DNA of 63,994 bases, filler included, from Asterionella formosa (lineage: Eukaryota): the NCBI GenBank assembly GCA_002256025.1. It is 4 parts of 4 records of this genome, joined end to end, with 100 filler letters (N's around TTAATTAATTAA, not from the genome) between each part and the next. Parts side by side here need not be neighbours in the genome. Positions count along the whole stretch, not along the records: positions 16,089 to 32,074 come from NKIB01005169.1; 3 more parts are not named here. One strand, 5' to 3'. The position numbers were made by a program, and so were the translations under genes. Positions within the stretch are counted from its first letter, which is position 1. Each line of letters opens with the position of its first letter. The notes below the pieces were generated by a model. The model was not told where the DNA came from and did no database searches. It saw only the letters and a list, made by a program, of their open reading frames with translations. Shown here piece by piece: positions 14,272 to 55,727 of this stretch.

Positions 14272-14320
14272 CGGGAATTGCTTCAATAATAACCTTCTCG
14301 GCGGCTACTTGCCTTCTTGT

Positions 14321-14425
14321 ATACATGTGTGTTCGAGGCAGGGTGGCACGAGTAGGTTGACTATACAAGTGCGCCACTCATTTTGTCAACCTTCTTGCGC
14401 CACCCTGCCTCAAACACACATGTAT
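14321..14425. repeat. Long inverted repeat/hairpin (41 bp arms, 23 nt loop)
   Basis: ATACATGTGTGTTCGAGGCAGGGTGGCACGAGTAGGTTGAC versus GTCAACCTTCTTGCGCCACCCTGCCTCAAACACACATGTAT; 4 mismatches. Confidence 0.85.
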
Positions 14426-19557: not shown

Positions 19558-20339
19558 CGTCACGTACAACCTACGCTTGTGGCAGCTTCCAAAGTTGCTT
19601 CAAAGCGAATACACAATGCTACGAATTCAAATGATTGCGATGGTAACATTATGTTAGTGGAGAAAGGGACGAATGGAATGGACTTTTGTTAGATCAACTT
19701 TGATGAATATAGTGAGAAAATGGTCAAATGGAAGTGATTTTGTAATATAATCTGCTGTTTTGAAATCAAATCGATCGCTGAAGTATTCGCTGCTCGCCGA
19801 TGGAAACCTTGTTACCGGTGATGCTGCAAACCAATGAGTGTATCAAGAAGCACTCAGTGACAAACCATATCATGAACAATGGTACCTGCTGTCTTTTTTT
19901 CTCCTGTGACTCTTGCACATCAAGCTGGTTGGTGATCGCCTCGGCTTCGTTCATAGAGTTTGAGCGTGCGAATACGAGAATGAGATATTCTCCTTGTTTG
20001 AGCATATAGTATCCTCAAGCATGCTTGGAATATGTTTGTATTGTTGAGTTACGTCTCTCAATGCATTTCCCTCATATTCCATACAAGTACCAGCAGTGCG
20101 AAGAAAACGTCCTTATTCGTTTCATTGGAACAGTGTGTCGATCGGTTTTCTCGGCTTTCTATTCTATTCGTACCTCGTTTGTTTCTCTCGTGATGTCCTT
20201 GTTTTCCTAATTTGAAATTGTAATTATGAACCCAAGAAACTATGCATTAATTGGGTTTGCAAACCATTGGTGTTGCACGGGGAATCACTATGAGCAGCAA
20301 TTTCATTGGCATGTGGAAATTTTGCAAGTCAAGAAACTT

Positions 20340-20795
20340 TTAATAAAGCTTCGAATTCGACGGTAATTGTTTTGTTCGTCGGGATCGCTGATCTCGTTCT
20401 TGTTGATGTTGTCTTCGTTCTTCGTGAAGGCTTCCCAAAAGTCGATTCATTGGCATATACGCTTGAGGAGCGTCTTTCGAAGCCGTGCCTTCTCCAACTT
20501 CCTGCTGCATTCCTTGCTGTTCCTGATGCGTTGAATTGTAAGCATAGTCGTTTTGACGGACCATTCGTTCGTTGTCTACTCTGTCATTCCAGGCTTGCGC
20601 ATTCGACAGTTCAGCTTGGTAATTTGAAATCTTCTGCGCGTGCTGCTGATCAAAGAAAGTAGGGGATGATGCGTTCACTCGCAGACGTTTCATCGAGTGT
20701 TGCAAGGGCTCTTCACCGACAGCAACTTGGTCGTTATGATGACGTTTAGTCGAACTTCTCGAAGCCGCCTCTTGTAACGAAGTCAGCCTCTCCAT
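20340..20795 (-). CDS. Hypothetical hydrophilic protein (151 aa, possibly with an upstream exon)
   Basis: Open Gln-rich ORF with NLS-like MKRLR and a C-terminal helix YMPMNRLLGSLHEERR. Confidence 0.6.
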   Translation of the reverse strand: MERLTSLQEAASRSSTKRHHNDQVAVGEEPLQHSMKRLRVNASSPTFFDQQHAQKISNYQAELSNAQAWNDRVDNERMVRQNDYAYNSTHQEQQGMQQEVGEGTASKDAPQAYMPMNRLLGSLHEERRQHQQERDQRSRRTKQLPSNSKLY

Positions 20796-21162
20796 GGCGA
20801 AGATTCTTCGTCGTCACAGTGGAAGGATTCAGCAACGGAGGAGTATCTATAAAAGATCAGTAGAAGGAGATTGAGGAAGGCAGCAGAACCAAATACAGTT
20901 CAGAAGTCTTCTTTGGAAACATGAAAATTTAACTTCACTAATTGCTTGTTTTTCGTTGTCCTTTCGTAACGCTGAATGAATCAAAATGTTTGTTATAATT
21001 ATTTATATAGTAAGTACCGGTATTCCCCTATTGTTCTTCAAATACTTTCTTTGCTTGTTATTCCGGTAGAGACGACAACTGGTCCGTAGTCTGTCCAGCC
21101 TACTTACTGCAGGTACTACCGGTATACATACAATTATATTCTGAAACAACACTCTAGGCTTT

Positions 21163-21168
21163 ATATAC
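21163..21168 (+). promoter_or_regulatory. TATA-like element upstream of the permuted tRNA
   Basis: TTTATATAC about 25-30 nt upstream of the leader GTGAACGG (21191). Confidence 0.5.
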
Positions 21169-21207
21169 TTTAATGTACGCCGAAATATTTGTGAACGGTA
21201 GTAGCAC

Positions 21208-21294
21208 ATCAGGAGATTCCGGGTTCGAATCCCGGGCAGGTTTCAATGCCCTGTTACCGACTTGTTGGCCCAATGGTAAGGCGCCTGACTACGG
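21208..21294 (+). tRNA. trnR-ACG: Circularly permuted tRNA-Arg(ACG): 3' half 21208-21243, 15 nt spacer, 5' half 21259-21294
   Basis: 5' half GACTTGTTGGCCCAATGGTAAGGCGCCTGACTACGG plus 3' half ATCAGGAGATTCCGGGTTCGAATCCCGGGCAGGTTT fold to a full cloverleaf. Anticodon stem CCTGA/TCAGG, loop CT-ACG-GA, perfect T arm CCGGG-TTCGAAT-CCCGG, D stem GCC/GGC, acceptor GACTTGT/GCAGGTT with three G-U pairs. Confidence 0.8.
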
Positions 21295-21417
21295 ACCTGT
21301 TCTTTTATTTTTTTCAAACTCTTCTTGTCACAAAATTATTATTCTTGGATGTGACTACGGACCTGTTCTTTTATTTTTTTCAAACTCTTCTTGTCACAAA
21401 ATTATTATTCTTGGATG
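21286..21417 (+). repeat. Perfect 66 bp tandem duplication
   Basis: TGACTACGGACCTGTTC...TTCTTGGATG at 21286-21351 and 21352-21417. Confidence 0.95.
21303..21314 (+). terminator. Pol III oligo-T terminator
   Basis: TTTTATTTTTTT directly after the 8 nt trailer ACCTGTTC. Confidence 0.65.
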
Positions 21418-23653
21418 TGGCCTTTGATGGTAACAAAGTGTGGAAACAAAAAAATCATACCTTAAGGAATGATTCTTTTTATTTTCTGAAACCCCTGTCA
21501 GGAATGCCTCCAATCACCTAGCTACTACTAGTAGGATTTAATGAGCTGCTCAGGGAGTCAGAAGCCTTGTCAATTGAGGATAGATACATCTATAGATGCA
21601 TGAGCAGCACCCAGAAGCAAGCAACAATTACAAGAAAAAATGTTTCTATCATGGAGCTCTATGATGAGGAAAGGAGGAAGAAACGTTCAACATATACTGC
21701 CTAGTCAAGTTTCACCTGCTCAAGTTTCCTAGTATGGTTTTACTTGAGTCAGTAAGTGAAAAAATGATCATTTTCGTTATGTGGTGGACACCAGAATGAA
21801 CCCAGCCATCAAGATAGTAAAGAGATTTATAGCATGATGTTTTTTCACAAATGATGAATAGATAGCCATTCAACAGAGTCACTCAAGAATGTGGATCAAG
21901 GAATGTGCTAGAGTTTTAGAATTAATTTTTATTGTATTGCATGTAGCCAAGAAGTTCCAATAAGCAAGTAGTTCATCATTATTGGTCCTTATCTTGTTGG
22001 CCTCAGTCATTTTAAACACCATGCCCCCCTTTTTGCCTCTTCATATTATTGATTCATATAGGTGATAAAATTTGTTGGCACTCACATACCAATACATTTG
22101 TGTCATATTGACTAAAATTTTCGCTTGAGTTACCATGGTGAACAGGTTCCTGGGTACTAATAGTGTACTGCTAGTACTAGTAAGGGGGTCACAAAGTTTC
22201 AGTCTTTATCTATTATGACAGCATGATGGTGAAAATAGGATTACAAATACTAGCAAAATTTACGTAATGAGAATGGTGTATATTTTGCTCATCCAACATC
22301 TCATATTAGCTAGTACCTAATATTGTTAGAATTATATGTAGGGTCATTTTCTTTTATCAACAGCAATATGGTTTTGATTTCCACAGCAGGAATCATGGTA
22401 TGCATGTTCAGACTCAATCATGGTGGCACAATAAAAGTGGATGAAGTTTATGGGAAACATTAGGTCATCAATGCAATACAAGTCATATCAGCCAGATACC
22501 ACCAGTCCTCTTGTGCAAGTACGAGGCTGTACCCCGTTGTATGATACAATCAATGTCTGATTGCTGGTGCTGTCTGGTATCATAAATACTGACTACTCCA
22601 GTGCCTGGTAGTCTACCAGTACTCAGAGTATGGGTACTGACATTGCAAAGTCTAGAGTGATTTGGGTTAGGGTTGACTTCCTTATATCAATGTGCATGTC
22701 ATCACTACTATGAAAAAACTATTTCTGGTTAAGAAATATTTGATCTCAGCATGCTAATGAAGATGAACATGCAATTAACTAGATAGGATGGAATATTTGG
22801 AAAAATGAATGCTCTATGTAGCTAATGCACTTTTTACAGGCACATTGTTACCATTTGAGTTGCTAATGATATTACTGAAACACTATCTAGATATGTCAGG
22901 AAGTAAAAGAATGATCAATTGCAAATCATTATCATTACTTGGTTATCTATATGAAAGGTTGGGCAAAAGATCCAAGATTGACCTGATCTGAAATAAGTGG
23001 AGTTGAATTGATTGTATATTGAGTTTTAAGAAGCTCACAAAAAAATAGGAATGTAGAACAACATTTCTGTCTACATTTTGCCTTCTATCTACGAATTTTA
23101 CGCACAGCCGTAGATGCGTCCGAACGCGTACGTACAACTATTGTTGTGATATATGAGGAATTAAAAACCGGCATATGCATACCAGTACCGGTGTGAACGG
23201 TGAACAGCCACATGCACGACACCGCCACCATCTGCAGTCCGGCCTTTAATCTAGCTAAATATTTAAGTATTGTGAAAACATCATGTAAGGACGCGGCAGC
23301 GCGGAAGCTGTTGCGATTCCGTTTCTCCTTTCTCCCGTGATGCGTCGTGGTACCTGGTACCTGGTACTTGGTGTCGGTAGTATTAGACGACCTGGTAACC
23401 ATCAGGTGCTGCTACTGGTACCAGGTAGTACCAACAGCTCTAACGGTACCTGGTATGGTACCGGCATTCCGGTAGTTATAATTACCGAAATTACGTTCAA
23501 AAATTCAGGTCTAGCACTGAGCAAAGAACCACTGCCATAATAAAAAAACTGTTGATTTATCAATTCAAACGTACTACAGCTATATCCACATCTCCATAAC
23601 CAACCCAGCTTGTTCGACCTTCCCCTCCACTTTTTGCTTCGCATTTTGCTTCC

Positions 23654-25029: not shown

Positions 25030-27747
25030 TTAGGACTGCGATGACTCTTTCGCAAACAGGTCAGCAGCGAATTCACATCCTACCGGAATAACACCCTTGG
25101 ATCTCAAATTCGACACCAAATCAGCCATTGCAATGGTTTCTTCAGTTCTCGCCATAAGGTCTTTCACCTTGCACTTTTGTTCCTTCACCTCCTCTTCGCC
25201 CACGATAACCATAAACGGAATCTCGCGTTCCAGAGCATCAGTCAACTCATACTTGAGCTTAGGGTTGTCCTGCTGGCTGAATTCGGCACTGATTTTTGCA
25301 TCCCATAAGATACGTGTCACCTTCATACGTTCCTTCATCATTCCATCTCCCACGGATGCAACCAGAACCTTGACGTTTGGTTGCTTAATGGATCCTTGCT
25401 CTTCACGCAGACGTTCCTCCATGAGGGTAAACACACGCTCAATACCAACACTTACTCCAACGCAGGGCGTTATTTTGCCAGCCTCTTGAAACATGGATAC
25501 AAGATTATCGTACCTTCCTCCACCACCAATACTTCCCACTTGGGTGTTACCGTTCATGCAAACGGCCTCATAAATAACACCCGTATAGTAGTCAAGGCCC
25601 CGAGCCAAACTCAAGTCAAAAGAAAAGAATTTGAGCTTGTCCATAGCCTCCAGGTATTCAAATAGAATACGAAGGTCTTCCATTGCAGCAATTGCTCCAC
25701 CGTGCTTTCCAAACTTGTTGCTATTCATCAATTCGTTGAACAAATCCCACGGAGGTCCCTTTTTCAAAACGAAAGTTCCAATCTTGTCTGCCACCTCTGG
25801 CTTGAGCCCCTTGTCTTCTACCATTTCACGCTTGACCTCTTCCCACGGTTCCTTGTCAAGCTTGTCGACAGCCGAGCAGATAGTGCGGAACTTGTCAGCA
25901 GGGACTCCACTCAAATCCAAAATAGCGTCTAACAAGCGTCTGTGGTTGAGCTTGATGCCAAAGTCTCCGATTGGAAGAGCATCCAAGATATCGCATGCGA
26001 CACAAAGGCATTCCGAGTCAGGAACCATGCGTCCATACGTTCCCGCTATATCGAAATCACATTGGTAAAATTCACGGTATCGTCCGCGTGAGAGGGCTGG
26101 TTGATCCCGACGATAGACCTTACCAATGTGGAAACGTTTAATGTTTCCAACCGCATTTAAGGCCAAGAATCGAGCGAACGGGACAGTCAAGTCATATCGC
26201 AAAGCCAACATTTCTCCACCTTGATCCGCCAAATCGTAAATAAGTTTAGAATCTTCGCCGTATTTACCAGTTAATGTGTCCTTAAGCTCAAATACAGGAG
26301 TATCAATTTCAACTGCACCATGAGACTGAAATACACGCCTAATAATGTCGAATGCCTGTTGACGAATCATCATTTGTTCTGGCAAATAGTCCCTTGTTCC
26401 CTTGGCAATCTTCGGCTTTCTTTGAACACCGCCGCTGAGGAGCTTATCAAGGATCGTTTCTATCTGCACAATTGTCCTTTCTGTCAATTCGAAATTGTTC
26501 TCCTTCAAGACTTGAATGATTGGTTGCGTTCCATCACCAAAAAGGGTGACTCCCTTGGTCTCCTTGGCAGCTTTCTTGGCAGCCACCTTTGCATCCTTTT
26601 CTGCGCGCTTCTTCAAAATCTTTCCTTTCTGTGCTTCTGTCATGCCCGAAAACTCGTCTTCTGCTCCCTCTGCGTACTTCGACTCGCTTGCAGCGGCCTT
26701 GGCAGCCCTCTGGGCGTCTTTCTCTTTAGCGTCTTTCTCTGCGCCTTCTGTTTCGCACTGAACAAAGGTAGCACCCATCTTGGCCTCCATTTGTAGCGAA
26801 TTTCCAAGCGAAGCAACAATTGCTTCCAAGTCGAAAACCAAGGTAGATAAATCCGCAGGAGCAGCTTTTTCAATTTCAGTATTTCCCATGCGACTTTCTG
26901 ATCCTTTGACTAATGTTGCAACGGCGTCAAAGGACTGACGTAACGCCAAAACAGCCACTGTGTTGTCCAAGATTTCACCAGGGTATCCTTCAAAGCAGTT
27001 GTTTTCCAACTCAAGAGTCTTGCAGGCTGACTTGAGAGCATCCAGTGATGGCCCTTGGTATTGAGGGAGATAGGAAACTGCCAATGGTACTTCACCTTCA
27101 TTAGATTGAGGAGTTACAAACTTGGACCCGTTGAGAATGGCGCGGATCGAAGCCGCAGCTGTGACTAAACCTCTGTGGGGACGGTTAATATCGAAGTGAG
27201 AATCTGCAAACGATGCTGAATTCGCTTTTGTACGTTCTGCTGAAAGGGCGCCGATTGCCGTAGACACTCGACTCAACGATGCCGCTCGTGCGGTGGCAAG
27301 TGATCCAACGGCCAGCAAAATAGTTCGAGTAATAAGATCAACTCCTATTTCCCCGACAGCAGCCTCGACTTCCGCAGACAATAGGCCTGCTACTGTGGAC
27401 TGAAACTTCGCTGCGTGACTTGACAGTCGAAACACACATCCAGACTTTTTTGCGGCGTTCACCAAATCAATCAGACCCGCCGTAACTTTGAGCGAATGTT
27501 TCTTTAGAACCCTTCCTTGAGCCACATTGATCGACAGAAGGGTGAGAGCAGCGATAGTCATGGACGAAGTCAACAACTCATCTTCTTCAAGACTCAAAGC
27601 AGATACCGCAGCTGTGAGATCTTCGTCGACTGGCGGCTGCTGAACGTCGGGCGCGTGCAGTTCAAGGACTCCATCGTACAAAGCCACAGCCTGAAGCTCG
27701 TCGAGCGTCACTCGACGCCCTTTTCCAATCAAGACAGGTTGCACCAT
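25030..27747 (-). CDS. HARS: Histidyl-tRNA synthetase with N-terminal HAL/PAL-like domain (905 aa)
   Basis: KGTRDY, LRYDLTVPFAR, YRRDQP..RGRYREFYQCDFD, LARGLDYYTG and GGGRYD motifs plus an anticodon-binding domain. The N-terminus has lyase-like segments RPHRG...IRAILNGS and LPQYQGP. Confidence 0.95.
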   Translation of the reverse strand: MVQPVLIGKGRRVTLDELQAVALYDGVLELHAPDVQQPPVDEDLTAAVSALSLEEDELLTSSMTIAALTLLSINVAQGRVLKKHSLKVTAGLIDLVNAAKKSGCVFRLSSHAAKFQSTVAGLLSAEVEAAVGEIGVDLITRTILLAVGSLATARAASLSRVSTAIGALSAERTKANSASFADSHFDINRPHRGLVTAAASIRAILNGSKFVTPQSNEGEVPLAVSYLPQYQGPSLDALKSACKTLELENNCFEGYPGEILDNTVAVLALRQSFDAVATLVKGSESRMGNTEIEKAAPADLSTLVFDLEAIVASLGNSLQMEAKMGATFVQCETEGAEKDAKEKDAQRAAKAAASESKYAEGAEDEFSGMTEAQKGKILKKRAEKDAKVAAKKAAKETKGVTLFGDGTQPIIQVLKENNFELTERTIVQIETILDKLLSGGVQRKPKIAKGTRDYLPEQMMIRQQAFDIIRRVFQSHGAVEIDTPVFELKDTLTGKYGEDSKLIYDLADQGGEMLALRYDLTVPFARFLALNAVGNIKRFHIGKVYRRDQPALSRGRYREFYQCDFDIAGTYGRMVPDSECLCVACDILDALPIGDFGIKLNHRRLLDAILDLSGVPADKFRTICSAVDKLDKEPWEEVKREMVEDKGLKPEVADKIGTFVLKKGPPWDLFNELMNSNKFGKHGGAIAAMEDLRILFEYLEAMDKLKFFSFDLSLARGLDYYTGVIYEAVCMNGNTQVGSIGGGGRYDNLVSMFQEAGKITPCVGVSVGIERVFTLMEERLREEQGSIKQPNVKVLVASVGDGMMKERMKVTRILWDAKISAEFSQQDNPKLKYELTDALEREIPFMVIVGEEEVKEQKCKVKDLMARTEETIAMADLVSNLRSKGVIPVGCEFAADLFAKESSQS

Positions 27748-31102: not shown

Positions 31103-32074
31103 GGTTCCTGCATTTGAACCCCTAGGCAAAAATTAAAATATTGCTTAGGGTTGCCGAAATTCCCTGGAACTAAGAACTTTTATGTGCTAATTTGAATATC
31201 AATGATTCCGTTTGAAAAATTCAAATGAGTGAAAATTTGCGCGTACGTATATAGATTCCATTTCAAATGCATAAAATATGTAAAGATAGATTCTCCATCG
31301 CTGAATGTTTTATATTGCTACTCTACCGATAGTATACCTACTCGTATCATAAATATGTTTCACATGCACGACCCGGCGGCTGTAAAATATATTTGAATGT
31401 GCAAACTATCGGTACTAAGGTACTGGTTAGCGTGCACTACCATTTACTATGACGAATGATGATCAGTTACCTGGAACCGGTAGGTCTACCCGGTTCTCGG
31501 TATTCCTACTCCGTACGGATTCCGGTATACGGGTAAACCTACCCGGTACTCGATATTCCCACTCCGTACGGATACCGGTATACGGGTAGGATCGGCCAAC
31601 ACCCAAGAAAATGCTTCATGTGTATCCAGTGTGGCCGGCGTGGGATGGCACGACCTCGCAAACCGTGCCAATCGAACGGATGTAAGGATAACCAATCAGA
31701 ATATGATTTTTACAGCGGGCAATTACATTGGAACTTTTTGTACACGAGATTTTACGACTACAAATTTTAGCACAAGACTACCATTCCGATGATGACGTTT
31801 CGGCGATTAGTGATTCTGATTCCGACGTTTGGGTGACCGTTGAAAAGGCCGATATTGTCGAATTTTTGGACGACGATAGCTCAACGTTGGCAGGGTTTGA
31901 AGAAGAGTTAAGTACATAGGTAATCTTCATATAGCCCCAGAAGTTAACTTTCGGCGAGAAACTGCAGAAAGGAACTTCGGTTTTTTTACTAGGCCAAATA
32001 AACGAGTTAGCCCGGTAAAATCCACTATTTTCAGCATAGTTAAAAAACCGAAGTTCCTTTCTGCAGTTTCTCGC
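31103..32074 (+). mobile_element. Non-autonomous Kolobok-family element (truncated by contig end)
   Basis: Starts TTAA|GGTTCCTGCATTTGAACCCCTAGG; shares the subterminal sequence and internal inverted repeat. Confidence 0.8.
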
Positions 32075-52142: not shown

Positions 52143-53216
52143 AATTGACCTCGTTTCCCATTTTCCAAAAGGAACGCAAAAGAATGTGCAGTTTGCAATA
52201 GACCACTAAAACCCGGAGGCAAACACACAAAAACTGCAAAATAAGGGGAATTCGCTCAGTGTGATACTACCAGATATACAATTTCTTGCCGTGAATTGGA
52301 AGCAATGATCATGCTGCCCCTGGATGTTTGATACCATTCAAGAGCTCAAATTTGCTTTGCTGGAATGATGGTTGTGCATACTTTTCAAAAATTCTGCGAA
52401 CTTTGAAGACGAAAAGCGCAACTAGGATTTTGCATGATATTTGTAAATTAAATAGCGAGGTCTGTGCATGATACACATTAAGAATTTTTCACATTCCGAG
52501 GAAGTACAGAGTTTCCCATACCTTCCTGTTATTGGTAAAATTCAACGTAAGTAGTATTTTCCTGTAGACCACTAGTATTTTCCGACTTGGTACATGATGG
52601 TACCTTGATGGTATTGACAATATTTTACAATGATAAAATTAGGTACTGCTGAAACCCAAGAATTTCAACCCGGTTGCGCTGGGGTTGAATTTTTTCTTTT
52701 CTTTTGTTGAAACTTCAACTCAGATAAGGCTATTTCTTAGCATAACACAAATACAGACACATACCTGCTTTTTGTGTGTCTATGCATCTAATTTCATTGT
52801 GTGCATCATCTTAATCAATACAATACACAGCACAAATGGCCAAATTTCTTGTGTTGCCACACCAAAAATATTGGAGGACACAGAACTCTGCATGTTCTCC
52901 AATGTTTTTGGTGTGGCCTCATAAGAATCAAATGGAATATTCGATTTTAGTTTTAGAATAACATGACTAGTATGAAAAAAATACTCCCCATCAGATCAGA
53001 TTACACTGTGAAATTTGTTTGGTATCAGGCACAAAACTTTGCTGTCACACAGGACACAGAGGGTGTAATTCAACATAACATTCAACAAAAATGGCTGACA
53101 ACCACGCTCAGGACAACATTGATGGCGGTTTCATTTGTCTGTACGGTAAAATGAGACCTGCCTCCTCGTCTGAAATACCCCCCGGAAACCTAGGGACTAC
53201 ATAAAAGAACAAAAGG

Positions 53217-54848: not shown

Positions 54849-55727
54849 GGTTGTGGCCCCGCAGTTACACATTGCGAGTTCCTTATACCCAAATAATTTT
54901 ATGATGTACCTCAATCCACACATTATGTACAAGTAAATAAAATAATTAAAGGTGAAATTAGCTCTCACCAATACAACCACTTAACATATGCTTAGATACA
55001 ATCGCTGCTCGACTTCGGGGTATGTTCTATCTTCGGATAAGGAAAGACCTCATTTCTGAAGAGAAGCTGCAGTTATGTATTAAAGACTCATTACAAAGGG
55101 GCTACAAAGCTTAGAAAAAATCTACGATACATAACTGCAGTTTCTCTCCAGAAGTTAACTGAAATTATGGGATACATGGCTATCTATTTTAATCTTCATG
55201 AAACCCCGCAGATGTGCGTAGAGCAATCCTCCTCCAAAAAGTCGCCCTGATCAGCTTTTTCAGCAATCAACAAAATATTGGAATCGGAATTTGTACGTGC
55301 AAAAACGTTCTCGTAGACTTAGAATCTTGTGCAGGTGAGTTTTGCTGCATATTACTGTCCGAAAAGACTTCAGGATAAGTTGCCGCATTACTACACATAT
55401 TCTGATTGGTTGAAATGAATTTATTCACCTGCTCCAGATTGGCTTAAGTAGCAAACCATGAGTATACATGATGTTGGCATACTCCTGATTTCAAAATTAT
55501 GTCCACACTCGCTCAGTAATGTAGATATAAAATAAACATTTAATTATCATTTTTGTTTGTTTAAAATGGAACTCTAATAATTTGGGACTTATTCCTATTT
55601 AAGTCAAATATTCAAATTGACACTCGAATCCTGGGAATTCATAGAAGCAAATCCTTGTTTCATGCCGTTTTTCCAACCCTAGCGAGCGAATTTTACTCCA
55701 AACTAGGGTTAAGGCGGGGCCGCAACC
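54849..55727 (-). mobile_element. Non-autonomous Kolobok-like element, second subfamily
   Basis: TTGA|GGTTGTGGCCCCGC ... GCGGGGCCGCAACC|TTTA; internal hairpin at 55054-55155. Confidence 0.75.

Follow-up and report, generated by a model that had tools for sequence, protein, structure and literature searches.

Organization of the Permuted tRNA Locus

The DNA analyzed here, called the window throughout, is a stretch of 63,994 nucleotides (nt) from the diatom Asterionella formosa (GenBank assembly GCA_002256025.1). One of its parts (NKIB01005169.1) holds what is likely a circularly permuted gene for tRNA-Arg(ACG), where the tRNA's 3' half stands upstream of the 5' half. On the + strand, the order is leader, 3' half (21208-21243), a spacer of 15 nt (21244-21258), 5' half (21259-21294), trailer and T-runs, with the following features:

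21162..21168 (+): TATA-like element TATATAC, 46 nt 5' of the 3' half and about 30 nt 5' of the leader helix
21193..21207 (+): leader, its 3' end reading GAACGG-TA-GTAG-CAC; its helices appear in free and in cloverleaf-constrained folds
21193-98 (+): leader segment GAACGG(T), partner of the trailer in the outer helix (h')
21201-04 (+): leader segment GTAG, partner of C32-C35 in the central helix
21205-07 (+): leader segment CAC, which together with A38 makes up a 4-nt bulge carrying the predicted 3' cut site
21208..21243 (+): 3' half of tRNA-Arg(ACG), positions 38-73, from the sequence and from ARAGORN on the rejoined halves
21244..21258 (+): spacer CAATGCCCTGTTACC, the intervening sequence of 15 nt that bridges the 3' end of the tRNA to its 5' end and has no T-run
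21259..21294 (+): 5' half of tRNA-Arg(ACG), positions 1-37, 36 nt with a D loop 1 nt short, from the sequence and from ARAGORN
21295..21302 (+): trailer ACCTGTTC, whose complementarity to the leader gives the outer helix h'; the predicted 5' cut site lies between G37 (21294) and A21295
21303..21314 (+): T-runs TTTT, A, TTTTTTT (21303-06 and 21308-14), the predicted RNA polymerase III terminator

The 3' half comprises A38, the 3' strand of the anticodon stem, the variable loop AGATT, the T arm CCGGG-TTCGAAT-CCCGG, which corresponds to the B box, the 3' strand of the acceptor stem (GCAGGTT) and the discriminator T; it does not encode CCA. The 5' half contributes the 5' strand of the acceptor stem (GACTTGT), U8, the D arm with the A box TGGCCCAATGG, the 5' strand of the anticodon stem and the loop CTACGG with the anticodon ACG at 21291-21293. 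When the two halves were rejoined by their coordinates, ARAGORN recognized a tRNA-Arg(ACG) of 72 nt, and the universal nucleotides U8, A14, G18G19, A21, U33, T54-T55-C56 and A58, together with the A15:U48 pair, can all be read from the sequence.

With the DNA in its native order, ARAGORN found no tRNA in the whole window, and neither did Rfam at its gathering scores; at E<=10, the only Rfam matches around the locus were a T-arm fragment of 14 bits and YrlA at 20 bits. As a control for chance, we took 150-nt segments of the window at steps of 15 nt (about 4,250 in number), doubled each of them, and searched both strands with ARAGORN while allowing introns. Doubling makes a permuted gene detectable because it becomes a gene with an "intron." Junction-spanning tRNAs emerged from six doubled segments, all of them at the locus (four Arg(ACG) calls and two alternative readings of the same DNA), and this permutation-aware scan yielded no junction-spanning tRNA anywhere else in the 64-kb window. 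An earlier note on this DNA had placed the halves at these coordinates, separated by 15 nt and split between positions 37 and 38, had proposed that they reassemble into a complete cloverleaf that standard scans miss, and had set a TATA about 30 nt upstream and an oligo-T behind the trailer. Our reading of the sequence and the ARAGORN and Rfam results agree with it on each of these points, with the TATA located as TATATAC at 21162-68 and the oligo-T as the T-runs at 21303-14.

Occurrence of the Permuted Order in Sequencing Runs

We compared the stretch 20200-22400 with four sequencing runs, two of DNA (X1 and X2) and two metatranscriptomes, for all of which the evidence takes the form of contigs. 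The stretch is present in DNA runs of several studies that sampled freshwater and algal material. Since run X1 is the probable source of the window, it does not count as independent; X2 comes from another study. The halves are repeated in the genome, and Logan contigs break or switch between copies at 21294, a place where assemblers can therefore err; an exact 66-nt duplication adjoins as well, so that the order of the halves might be suspected to be an artefact of assembly. However, full-depth contigs of X1 overlap across the T arm, the spacer and the D arm (record 7, 21216-21287), a single contig of X2 runs unbroken over 20200-21294 (record 12), and the same order is found in four contigs from four metagenome data sets. 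The X2 contig differs from the window by base changes at 21162, 21172 and 21246 and by a 6-nt deletion at 21117, none of which falls within the halves. The earlier note had named misassembly as a possible refutation of its reading; with the permuted order recurring in an unbroken contig of an independent study, we give an assembly artefact next to no credence.

The adjoining duplication, absent from the earlier note, is an exact twofold tandem repeat at 21286-21419 (period 66 nt, 2.0 copies, 100% match), which starts at T29, inside the anticodon stem:

21286-21351 (+): first unit, which begins with the final 9 nt of the 5' half and includes the trailer and the terminator, plus a further 37 nt
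21352..21419 (+): second unit, downstream of the gene and without a part in its function

Since the second unit lies behind the terminator of an intact gene, the duplication has no effect on how the gene is read. One X2 contig skips one 66-nt unit, and the word depth in X1 over the duplication is about 2.3 times that of the neighboring baseline. The duplication is therefore probably real and strain-specific, and we attribute it with some confidence to a recent, strain-specific slippage event.

Additional Copies and Related Metagenome Loci

Run X1 contains at least one further permuted copy, known from loose contig ends that share a half with the window and then diverge. This second copy is seen directly in one contig, which passes from the end of a 3' half (AGGTTT) through an 18-nt spacer, CTTTGCCCTGTTCCCCCT, into a 5' half. 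Other X1 contigs depart from the window in their leader, which ends in AAATCCGGTACT ahead of A38, and in their trailer, which reads TCGGATTTTCTTTT behind G37 and recurs slightly changed in X2; because these leader and trailer pieces are complementary, they probably belong to one copy. The summed word depth in X1 over the halves is 3-5 times that of the neighboring bins, a figure that is not to be taken as a copy number.

Related loci were sought in JGI metagenome contigs with a pattern consisting of a T arm, 15-45 nt, and a D arm continuing to the anticodon loop. Four loci (L001 to L004) were found in four data sets; they represent three distinct sequences, with L001 and L002 being near-identical and derived from two data sets. 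Together with the window, five loci with four distinct sequences were thus available for comparison. The same pattern had no matches in prokaryotic genome contigs and none in viral contigs, as expected. All four metagenome loci are in the permuted order, ARAGORN detected no tRNA in any of them in this native order, and the rejoined halves were called as tRNA-Arg(ACG) in 5/5 loci, the window included. L002 adjoins a gene for a front-end desaturase whose best named relatives are from diatoms (Cylindrotheca, Grammatophora, Amphora and Nitzschia; 78-85%), and its organism is a diatom distinct from that of the window. The proteins of L003 and L004 gave no Pfam match above thresholds and no usable ESM Atlas match, and the last protein search for these two loci returned a single relative of 106 amino acids. 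Conservation of the permuted order, which the earlier note had proposed to look for in related diatoms, is thus found in the further X1 copies and in four metagenome loci, one of which lies beside a diatom gene.

In L004, a tRNA-Arg(UCG)-like gene is located at 101-188 on the - strand (Rfam tRNA model, 47 bits, E 5e-8) and ends 7 nt 5' of the permuted gene. It possesses a T loop of 23 nt, which includes a 16-nt insert, and a G1-G72 mismatch. No single 16-nt deletion yields a canonical T loop with C56, the best result being TTTGAGT. The insert might be a non-canonical intron; alternatively, the gene might encode an unusual tRNA or be a pseudogene. Its promoter may also drive the permuted gene.

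Conservation of the tRNA Halves

The two halves (72 nt) are 94-100% identical between the loci. The 60-nt flanks, apart from those of the L001/L002 pair, are 35-65% identical, compared with a mean of 51% and a maximum of 65% for random 60-mers of the window. Within the five loci, the 3' half is the same except at positions 69 and 71, and the 5' half except at positions 2 and 4; the anticodon loop CUACGG and its stem are invariant. When the four distinct sequences were aligned in permuted order, standard pairs occupied 79 of the 80 cells of the cloverleaf. At pair 2-71, which connects one half to the other, two of the distinct sequences have A-U and the other two U-A, a compensatory change; at pair 4-69, two have G-U, one has G-C, and L004 has an unpaired C-A. 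The spacers measure 4, 6, 15, 18 and 18 nt, contain no run of four or more T and do not encode CCA. In 5/5 loci, a run of at least four T begins 6-20 nt after G37, against a background in the window of 0.14 such runs per 20 nt. As judged from these sequence comparisons, the halves are under selection, and the permuted order is conserved under selection in relatives of the window organism.

These findings bear on a reading in which the locus is a non-functional relic, left behind after the outer halves of two conventional tRNA-Arg(ACG) genes in tandem had been lost, with a linear gene elsewhere doing the work. Tandem duplication followed by loss is the usual model for the origin of permuted genes (PMC3978253), the spacer sequence GCCCTGTT, similar to the 5' acceptor strand together with U8, could be a scar of such a duplication, and the fresh 66-nt repeat marks the locus as prone to slippage. 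A relic should decay, however, and here the halves have stayed nearly the same while the flanks are at the random level. Furthermore, the acceptor stem formed between the halves still pairs through the switch from A-U to U-A, leader-trailer helices persist with differing sequences in most loci, a terminator stands behind the gene in every locus, and no remnant of the missing outer halves is present within 100 nt on either side. The question of tandem-gene remnants had been raised before; as far as it turns on conservation of the order, the conserved halves, the random-level flanks and the retained order speak for a gene, and we consider a relic improbable.

The sequence is present in several copies, and it resembles the Rfam model YrlA (RF02553), whose tRNA-like domain is permuted; the match scores 20 bits for the window, and L001, L002 and L004 reach 24-29 bits. 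Both observations would suit a tRNA-like RNA without a decoding role, be it a mimic of the YrlA kind or a tRNA-derived repeat. Yet all of the YrlA matches are far under the gathering score of 69, and YrlA is known from bacteria and phages. The invariance of the anticodon loop and stem, and the reassembly of the whole cloverleaf including its anticodon arm, are not what such a mimic would lead one to expect, and the copies, unlike those of a repeat element, share the tRNA halves only and not the flanks. We hold a non-decoding RNA of this type to be very improbable.

A motif, TGCCCTGT (21247-21254 in the window), is common to the spacers of the window, the extra X1 copy and L001/L002, and is not found in those of L003 and L004. 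It resembles the 5' acceptor strand plus U8, and in free folds it rivals the true 5' strand for pairing with the 3' acceptor strand. The motif may have been left behind by the duplication from which the gene arose, or it may act in folding.

Junction Structure

Folding of the window copy pairs GUAG of the leader with C32-C35 in a central helix of 4 base pairs (bp), leaves CAC and A38 as a 4-nt 3' bulge, and gives an outer helix in which leader GAACGG is complementary to trailer CTGTTC (21297-302) with one G-U; this helix has 6-7 pairs and includes either a bulged U or a G-U pair. The description of this junction in the earlier note as a relaxed bulge-helix-bulge (BHB) motif with a 4-nt 3' bulge is a fair one for the window copy; other copies are nearer to the canonical motif. 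In the extra X1 copy, inspected by eye, leader AAAUCCG and trailer CGGAUUU form an outer helix of 7 bp, GUA pairs with U33-C35 in a central helix of 3 bp, and G36, G37 and the first trailer base make up a 3-nt 5' bulge, so that the junction of this copy is nearer the canonical motif than that of the window. L004 has GUAG positioned 2 nt before A38, which gives a canonical 3-nt 3' bulge together with a 4-bp central helix. L001/L002 possess an outer helix of 9 bp (UGAGCAGAC with GUCUGCUCA), matched in quality by at most 1/1000 shuffled trailers, and a weak central helix, and the junction helices of L003 are weak throughout. The outer-helix sequences of L001/L002, the extra X1 copy and the window are unrelated to one another.

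In 4/4 distinct loci, AG of the leader lies opposite C32-U33, with the G at -3 in L001, L003 and L004 and at -4 in the window. Position -3 is that of the anticodon-intron pair needed by the eukaryotic splicing endonuclease at the 3' site. This enzyme locates the 5' site by measuring from the mature domain, and it is not known to need a strict BHB motif. The window copy does not form the strict archaeal hBHBh' arrangement (3-nt bulge, 4-bp helix, 3-nt bulge), and it has unpaired leader nucleotides between its helices; given these rules of the enzyme and an intact mature domain, the strict archaeal motif is not expected to be needed. An ordinary eukaryotic pre-tRNA with an intron at 37/38 has the same two cut sites and a mature domain available for measuring by the endonuclease, and there, too, a leader or intron nucleotide pairs with C32, 2-3 nt before the 3' site.

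Proposed Maturation of the Transcript

Taken together, the sequence data make it likely that the locus is a working nuclear gene, circularly permuted and of type II (37/38), for a cytosolic tRNA-Arg(ACG) of a pennate-type freshwater diatom, whose product matures through a circular intermediate. Since the back half is encoded ahead of the front half, the RNA would have to be cut, circularized and re-opened in order to work. By analogy to Cyanidioschyzon merolae and green algae, we infer every RNA step as follows. RNA polymerase III would start 3' of the upstream TATA-like element, transcribe the leader, the 3' half, the 15-nt spacer, the 5' half and the trailer, and halt at the T-run. The halves would fold into a normal cloverleaf with the spacer as a loop closing the acceptor stem, while the leader would pair with the trailer and, through GUAG, with C32-C35 of the anticodon loop, thereby placing the two cut sites in a BHB-like structure, as with a 37/38 intron. 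The tRNA splicing endonuclease would cut off leader and trailer, and tRNA ligase would join G37 to A38; because the "intron" is here the outside of the transcript, ligation would close a circle instead of joining two exons of a linear RNA. RNase P and tRNase Z would then excise the spacer, CCA would be added, and A34 would be deaminated to inosine. Maruyama and colleagues reportedly observed a circular intermediate in their work of 2010.

A working gene might also do without the circle, if RNase P and tRNase Z were to cut out the spacer first and the base-paired halves were then trimmed and ligated at 37/38. The anatomy of the gene leaves the order of the cuts unfixed, and archaeal split tRNAs do mature from two base-paired pieces (PMC3218864). 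However, a maturation pathway with circular intermediates has been found in the studied C. merolae and nucleomorph of Bigelowiella natans (PMC3978253), and we regard the route without a circle as unlikely.

Several observations weigh against a working permuted gene. The acceptor stem of the window copy contains three G-U pairs (1-72, 4-69 and 7-66), and L004 has the C-A mismatch at 4-69; G1-U72 and U7-G66 are kept in 4/4 distinct sequences and are thus features of the tRNA and not signs of decay. The covariation is drawn from four distinct sequences only and is not significant by shuffling (93/500). The junction of the window departs from the canonical motif in its 4-nt 3' bulge and in a 2x1 or 4x2 loop at the 5' site, and the leader-trailer duplex taken alone is not significant against shuffled sequences in the window (129/1000), L003 (363/1000) or L004 (808/1000). 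Since the B box lies 5' of the A box, the usual internal promoter cannot work as such, and an upstream element is for the same reason the likely promoter; by analogy to C. merolae, the TATA-like element is a candidate for this role. TATAWA occurs within 100 nt upstream only in the window (at -46) and in L001 (TATATAA, at -59), against 77 occurrences in the + strand of the whole window, a background of 0.07 per 60 nt; L003 has TATATT, the upstream region of L002 ends at the contig edge, and the tRNA-like gene lies directly upstream in L004. The metagenome pattern demanded the permuted order and is therefore uninformative on the frequency of linear genes. Finally, no contig in the four runs, including the two metatranscriptomes, joins 21294 to 21208; as contigs can show that a sequence is present but not that it is absent, the missing join does not speak against either a mature tRNA or a linear gene.

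In the two metatranscriptomes, coverage extends over 20215-20955, which represents a neighboring transcript. Over the tRNA, the RNA runs gave a single contig (from run X17; 302 nt, depth 11), which contains the 5' half, stops precisely at G1 (21259), and continues on its other side for 266 nt through the trailer and T-runs of another copy. The end at G1 may be an RNA end, a branch of the assembly graph, or due to DNA in the library.

Comparison with Known Permuted tRNA Genes

The 34 permuted tRNA genes tabulated in PMC3978253 come from C. merolae, Ostreococcus, Micromonas, the B. natans nucleomorph and Thermofilum pendens; the table contains no stramenopile and no Arg(ACG) gene. Auxenochlorella has since added further permuted tRNA genes (PMC12633428, a 2025 preprint). 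The type II genes of C. merolae (Soma et al., 2007; PMC3978253) resemble the present loci in having the 3' half first, the junction at 37/38 and a short spacer (7-74 nt, and 4-18 nt in the present loci), in a pairing of leader and trailer at the junction, predicted in most of the present loci, in a TATA-like element upstream (here in the window and L001), for which a promoter role has been proposed in C. merolae, in a T-stretch that lies downstream and not in the spacer, and in the lack of an encoded CCA (PMC3978253). C. merolae is a red alga whose listed arginine gene is Arg(CCT) of type IV (PMC3978253), whereas we are dealing with Arg(ACG) in a stramenopile. Compared to C. merolae, the motif of the window copy is also relaxed.

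The genes listed for Ostreococcus, Micromonas and the B. natans nucleomorph (Maruyama et al., 2010, as given in PMC3978253) and for Auxenochlorella (PMC12633428) are almost all of type II and have spacers of 5-64 nt. These green-lineage genes belong to small photosynthetic eukaryotes and are missed by tRNAscan-SE, so that the tRNA set seems incomplete; the only arginine gene listed among them is Arg(TCT) of O. tauri (PMC3978253), in contrast to the Arg(ACG) gene of the present loci. The genes for tRNA-iMet and tRNA-Tyr of T. pendens (Chan, Cozen and Lowe, 2011; PMC3218864) are likewise permuted and have a BHB motif at the junction, but they come from an archaeon, their junction is at 59/60, CCA is encoded, the spacers measure 1-7 nt, and a canonical intron is present in addition.

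The earlier note had stated that no stramenopile or diatom case was known, and the searchable literature agrees: we found no permuted tRNA gene reported in diatoms or stramenopiles, the genomes screened by Maruyama et al. (2010) being outside the scope of this search. Among the matches listed for "permuted tRNA" since 2015, none is on diatoms by its title, and where this term and the names of diatoms or stramenopiles occur in the same text, they do so for unrelated reasons only. In the available parts of the sources, a 2026 review on the tRNA genes of photosynthetic organisms names permuted genes only in red and green algae, the nucleomorph and archaea, with Phaeodactylum appearing in it only on account of a small number of tRNA genes and in a figure about gene clustering; and the PlantRNA 2.0 preprint, in which two heterokontophytes are annotated, mentions permuted genes only for C. 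merolae. The permuted Arg(ACG) gene thus appears to represent a known kind of gene in a new major lineage, with good comparative support.

Implications for Diatom tRNA Sets

An essential gene is rarely written in permuted form, and the available reviews list permuted tRNA genes for a red alga, a small number of green algae, a nucleomorph of green origin and a single archaeon. Here, the permuted design would sit in the nuclear genome of a stramenopile, a major lineage beyond the primary algae, which bears on the question of whether such genes arose repeatedly or traveled with endosymbionts. The weight of the finding hinges on whether diatoms have any linear Arg(ACG) gene. It is conceivable, although we lean toward doubting it, that the only inosine-type arginine tRNA of diatoms, or of pennate diatoms at least, is encoded by permuted genes and by no others. 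If this were true, the reading of CGU, CGC and CGA in major primary producers of the ocean would depend on the maturation of a circular RNA, and the gene would be absent from standard tRNA annotations of diatoms. The tRNA-Arg(UCG)-like gene of L004 would in that case be a hint that stramenopiles conceal more disrupted tRNA genes, which could stem from the red-algal endosymbiont or could be of independent origin. Diatom tRNA sets obtained with tRNAscan-SE or ARAGORN probably lack the permuted Arg(ACG) gene, a matter of importance for work on codon usage, tRNA supply and codon optimization. Because several diatoms can be cultured and transformed, they would offer a ready test system.

Genomic Neighborhood

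The window is diatom nuclear DNA, as the earlier note had supposed. An open reading frame of 905 amino acids at 25030-27747 on the - strand encodes a histidyl-tRNA synthetase (HisRS), the named relatives of which are all from diatoms, with the best one (69%) from Fragilaria crotonensis. Enolase and a VTT-domain protein are encoded by further neighboring genes.

An N-terminal stretch of the HisRS (residues 143-251) matches the aromatic amino acid lyase family (PF00221, E 1.5e-13), and PF00221 is also listed for most of the diatom HisRS homologues; the arrangement looks like a conserved, diatom-wide fusion or extension. A search of the whole window with Rfam at E<=0.5 gave, away from the tRNA locus, only sub-threshold matches to hairpin (microRNA) models. 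One of these, at 14320-14425 (-), is to the plant miRNA precursor model MIR5229 (54.7 bits compared to a gathering score of 80, E 2e-9), and weaker ones lie at 31961-32065, 52846-52927 and 55054-55153. These matches probably represent inverted repeats or AT-rich hairpins.

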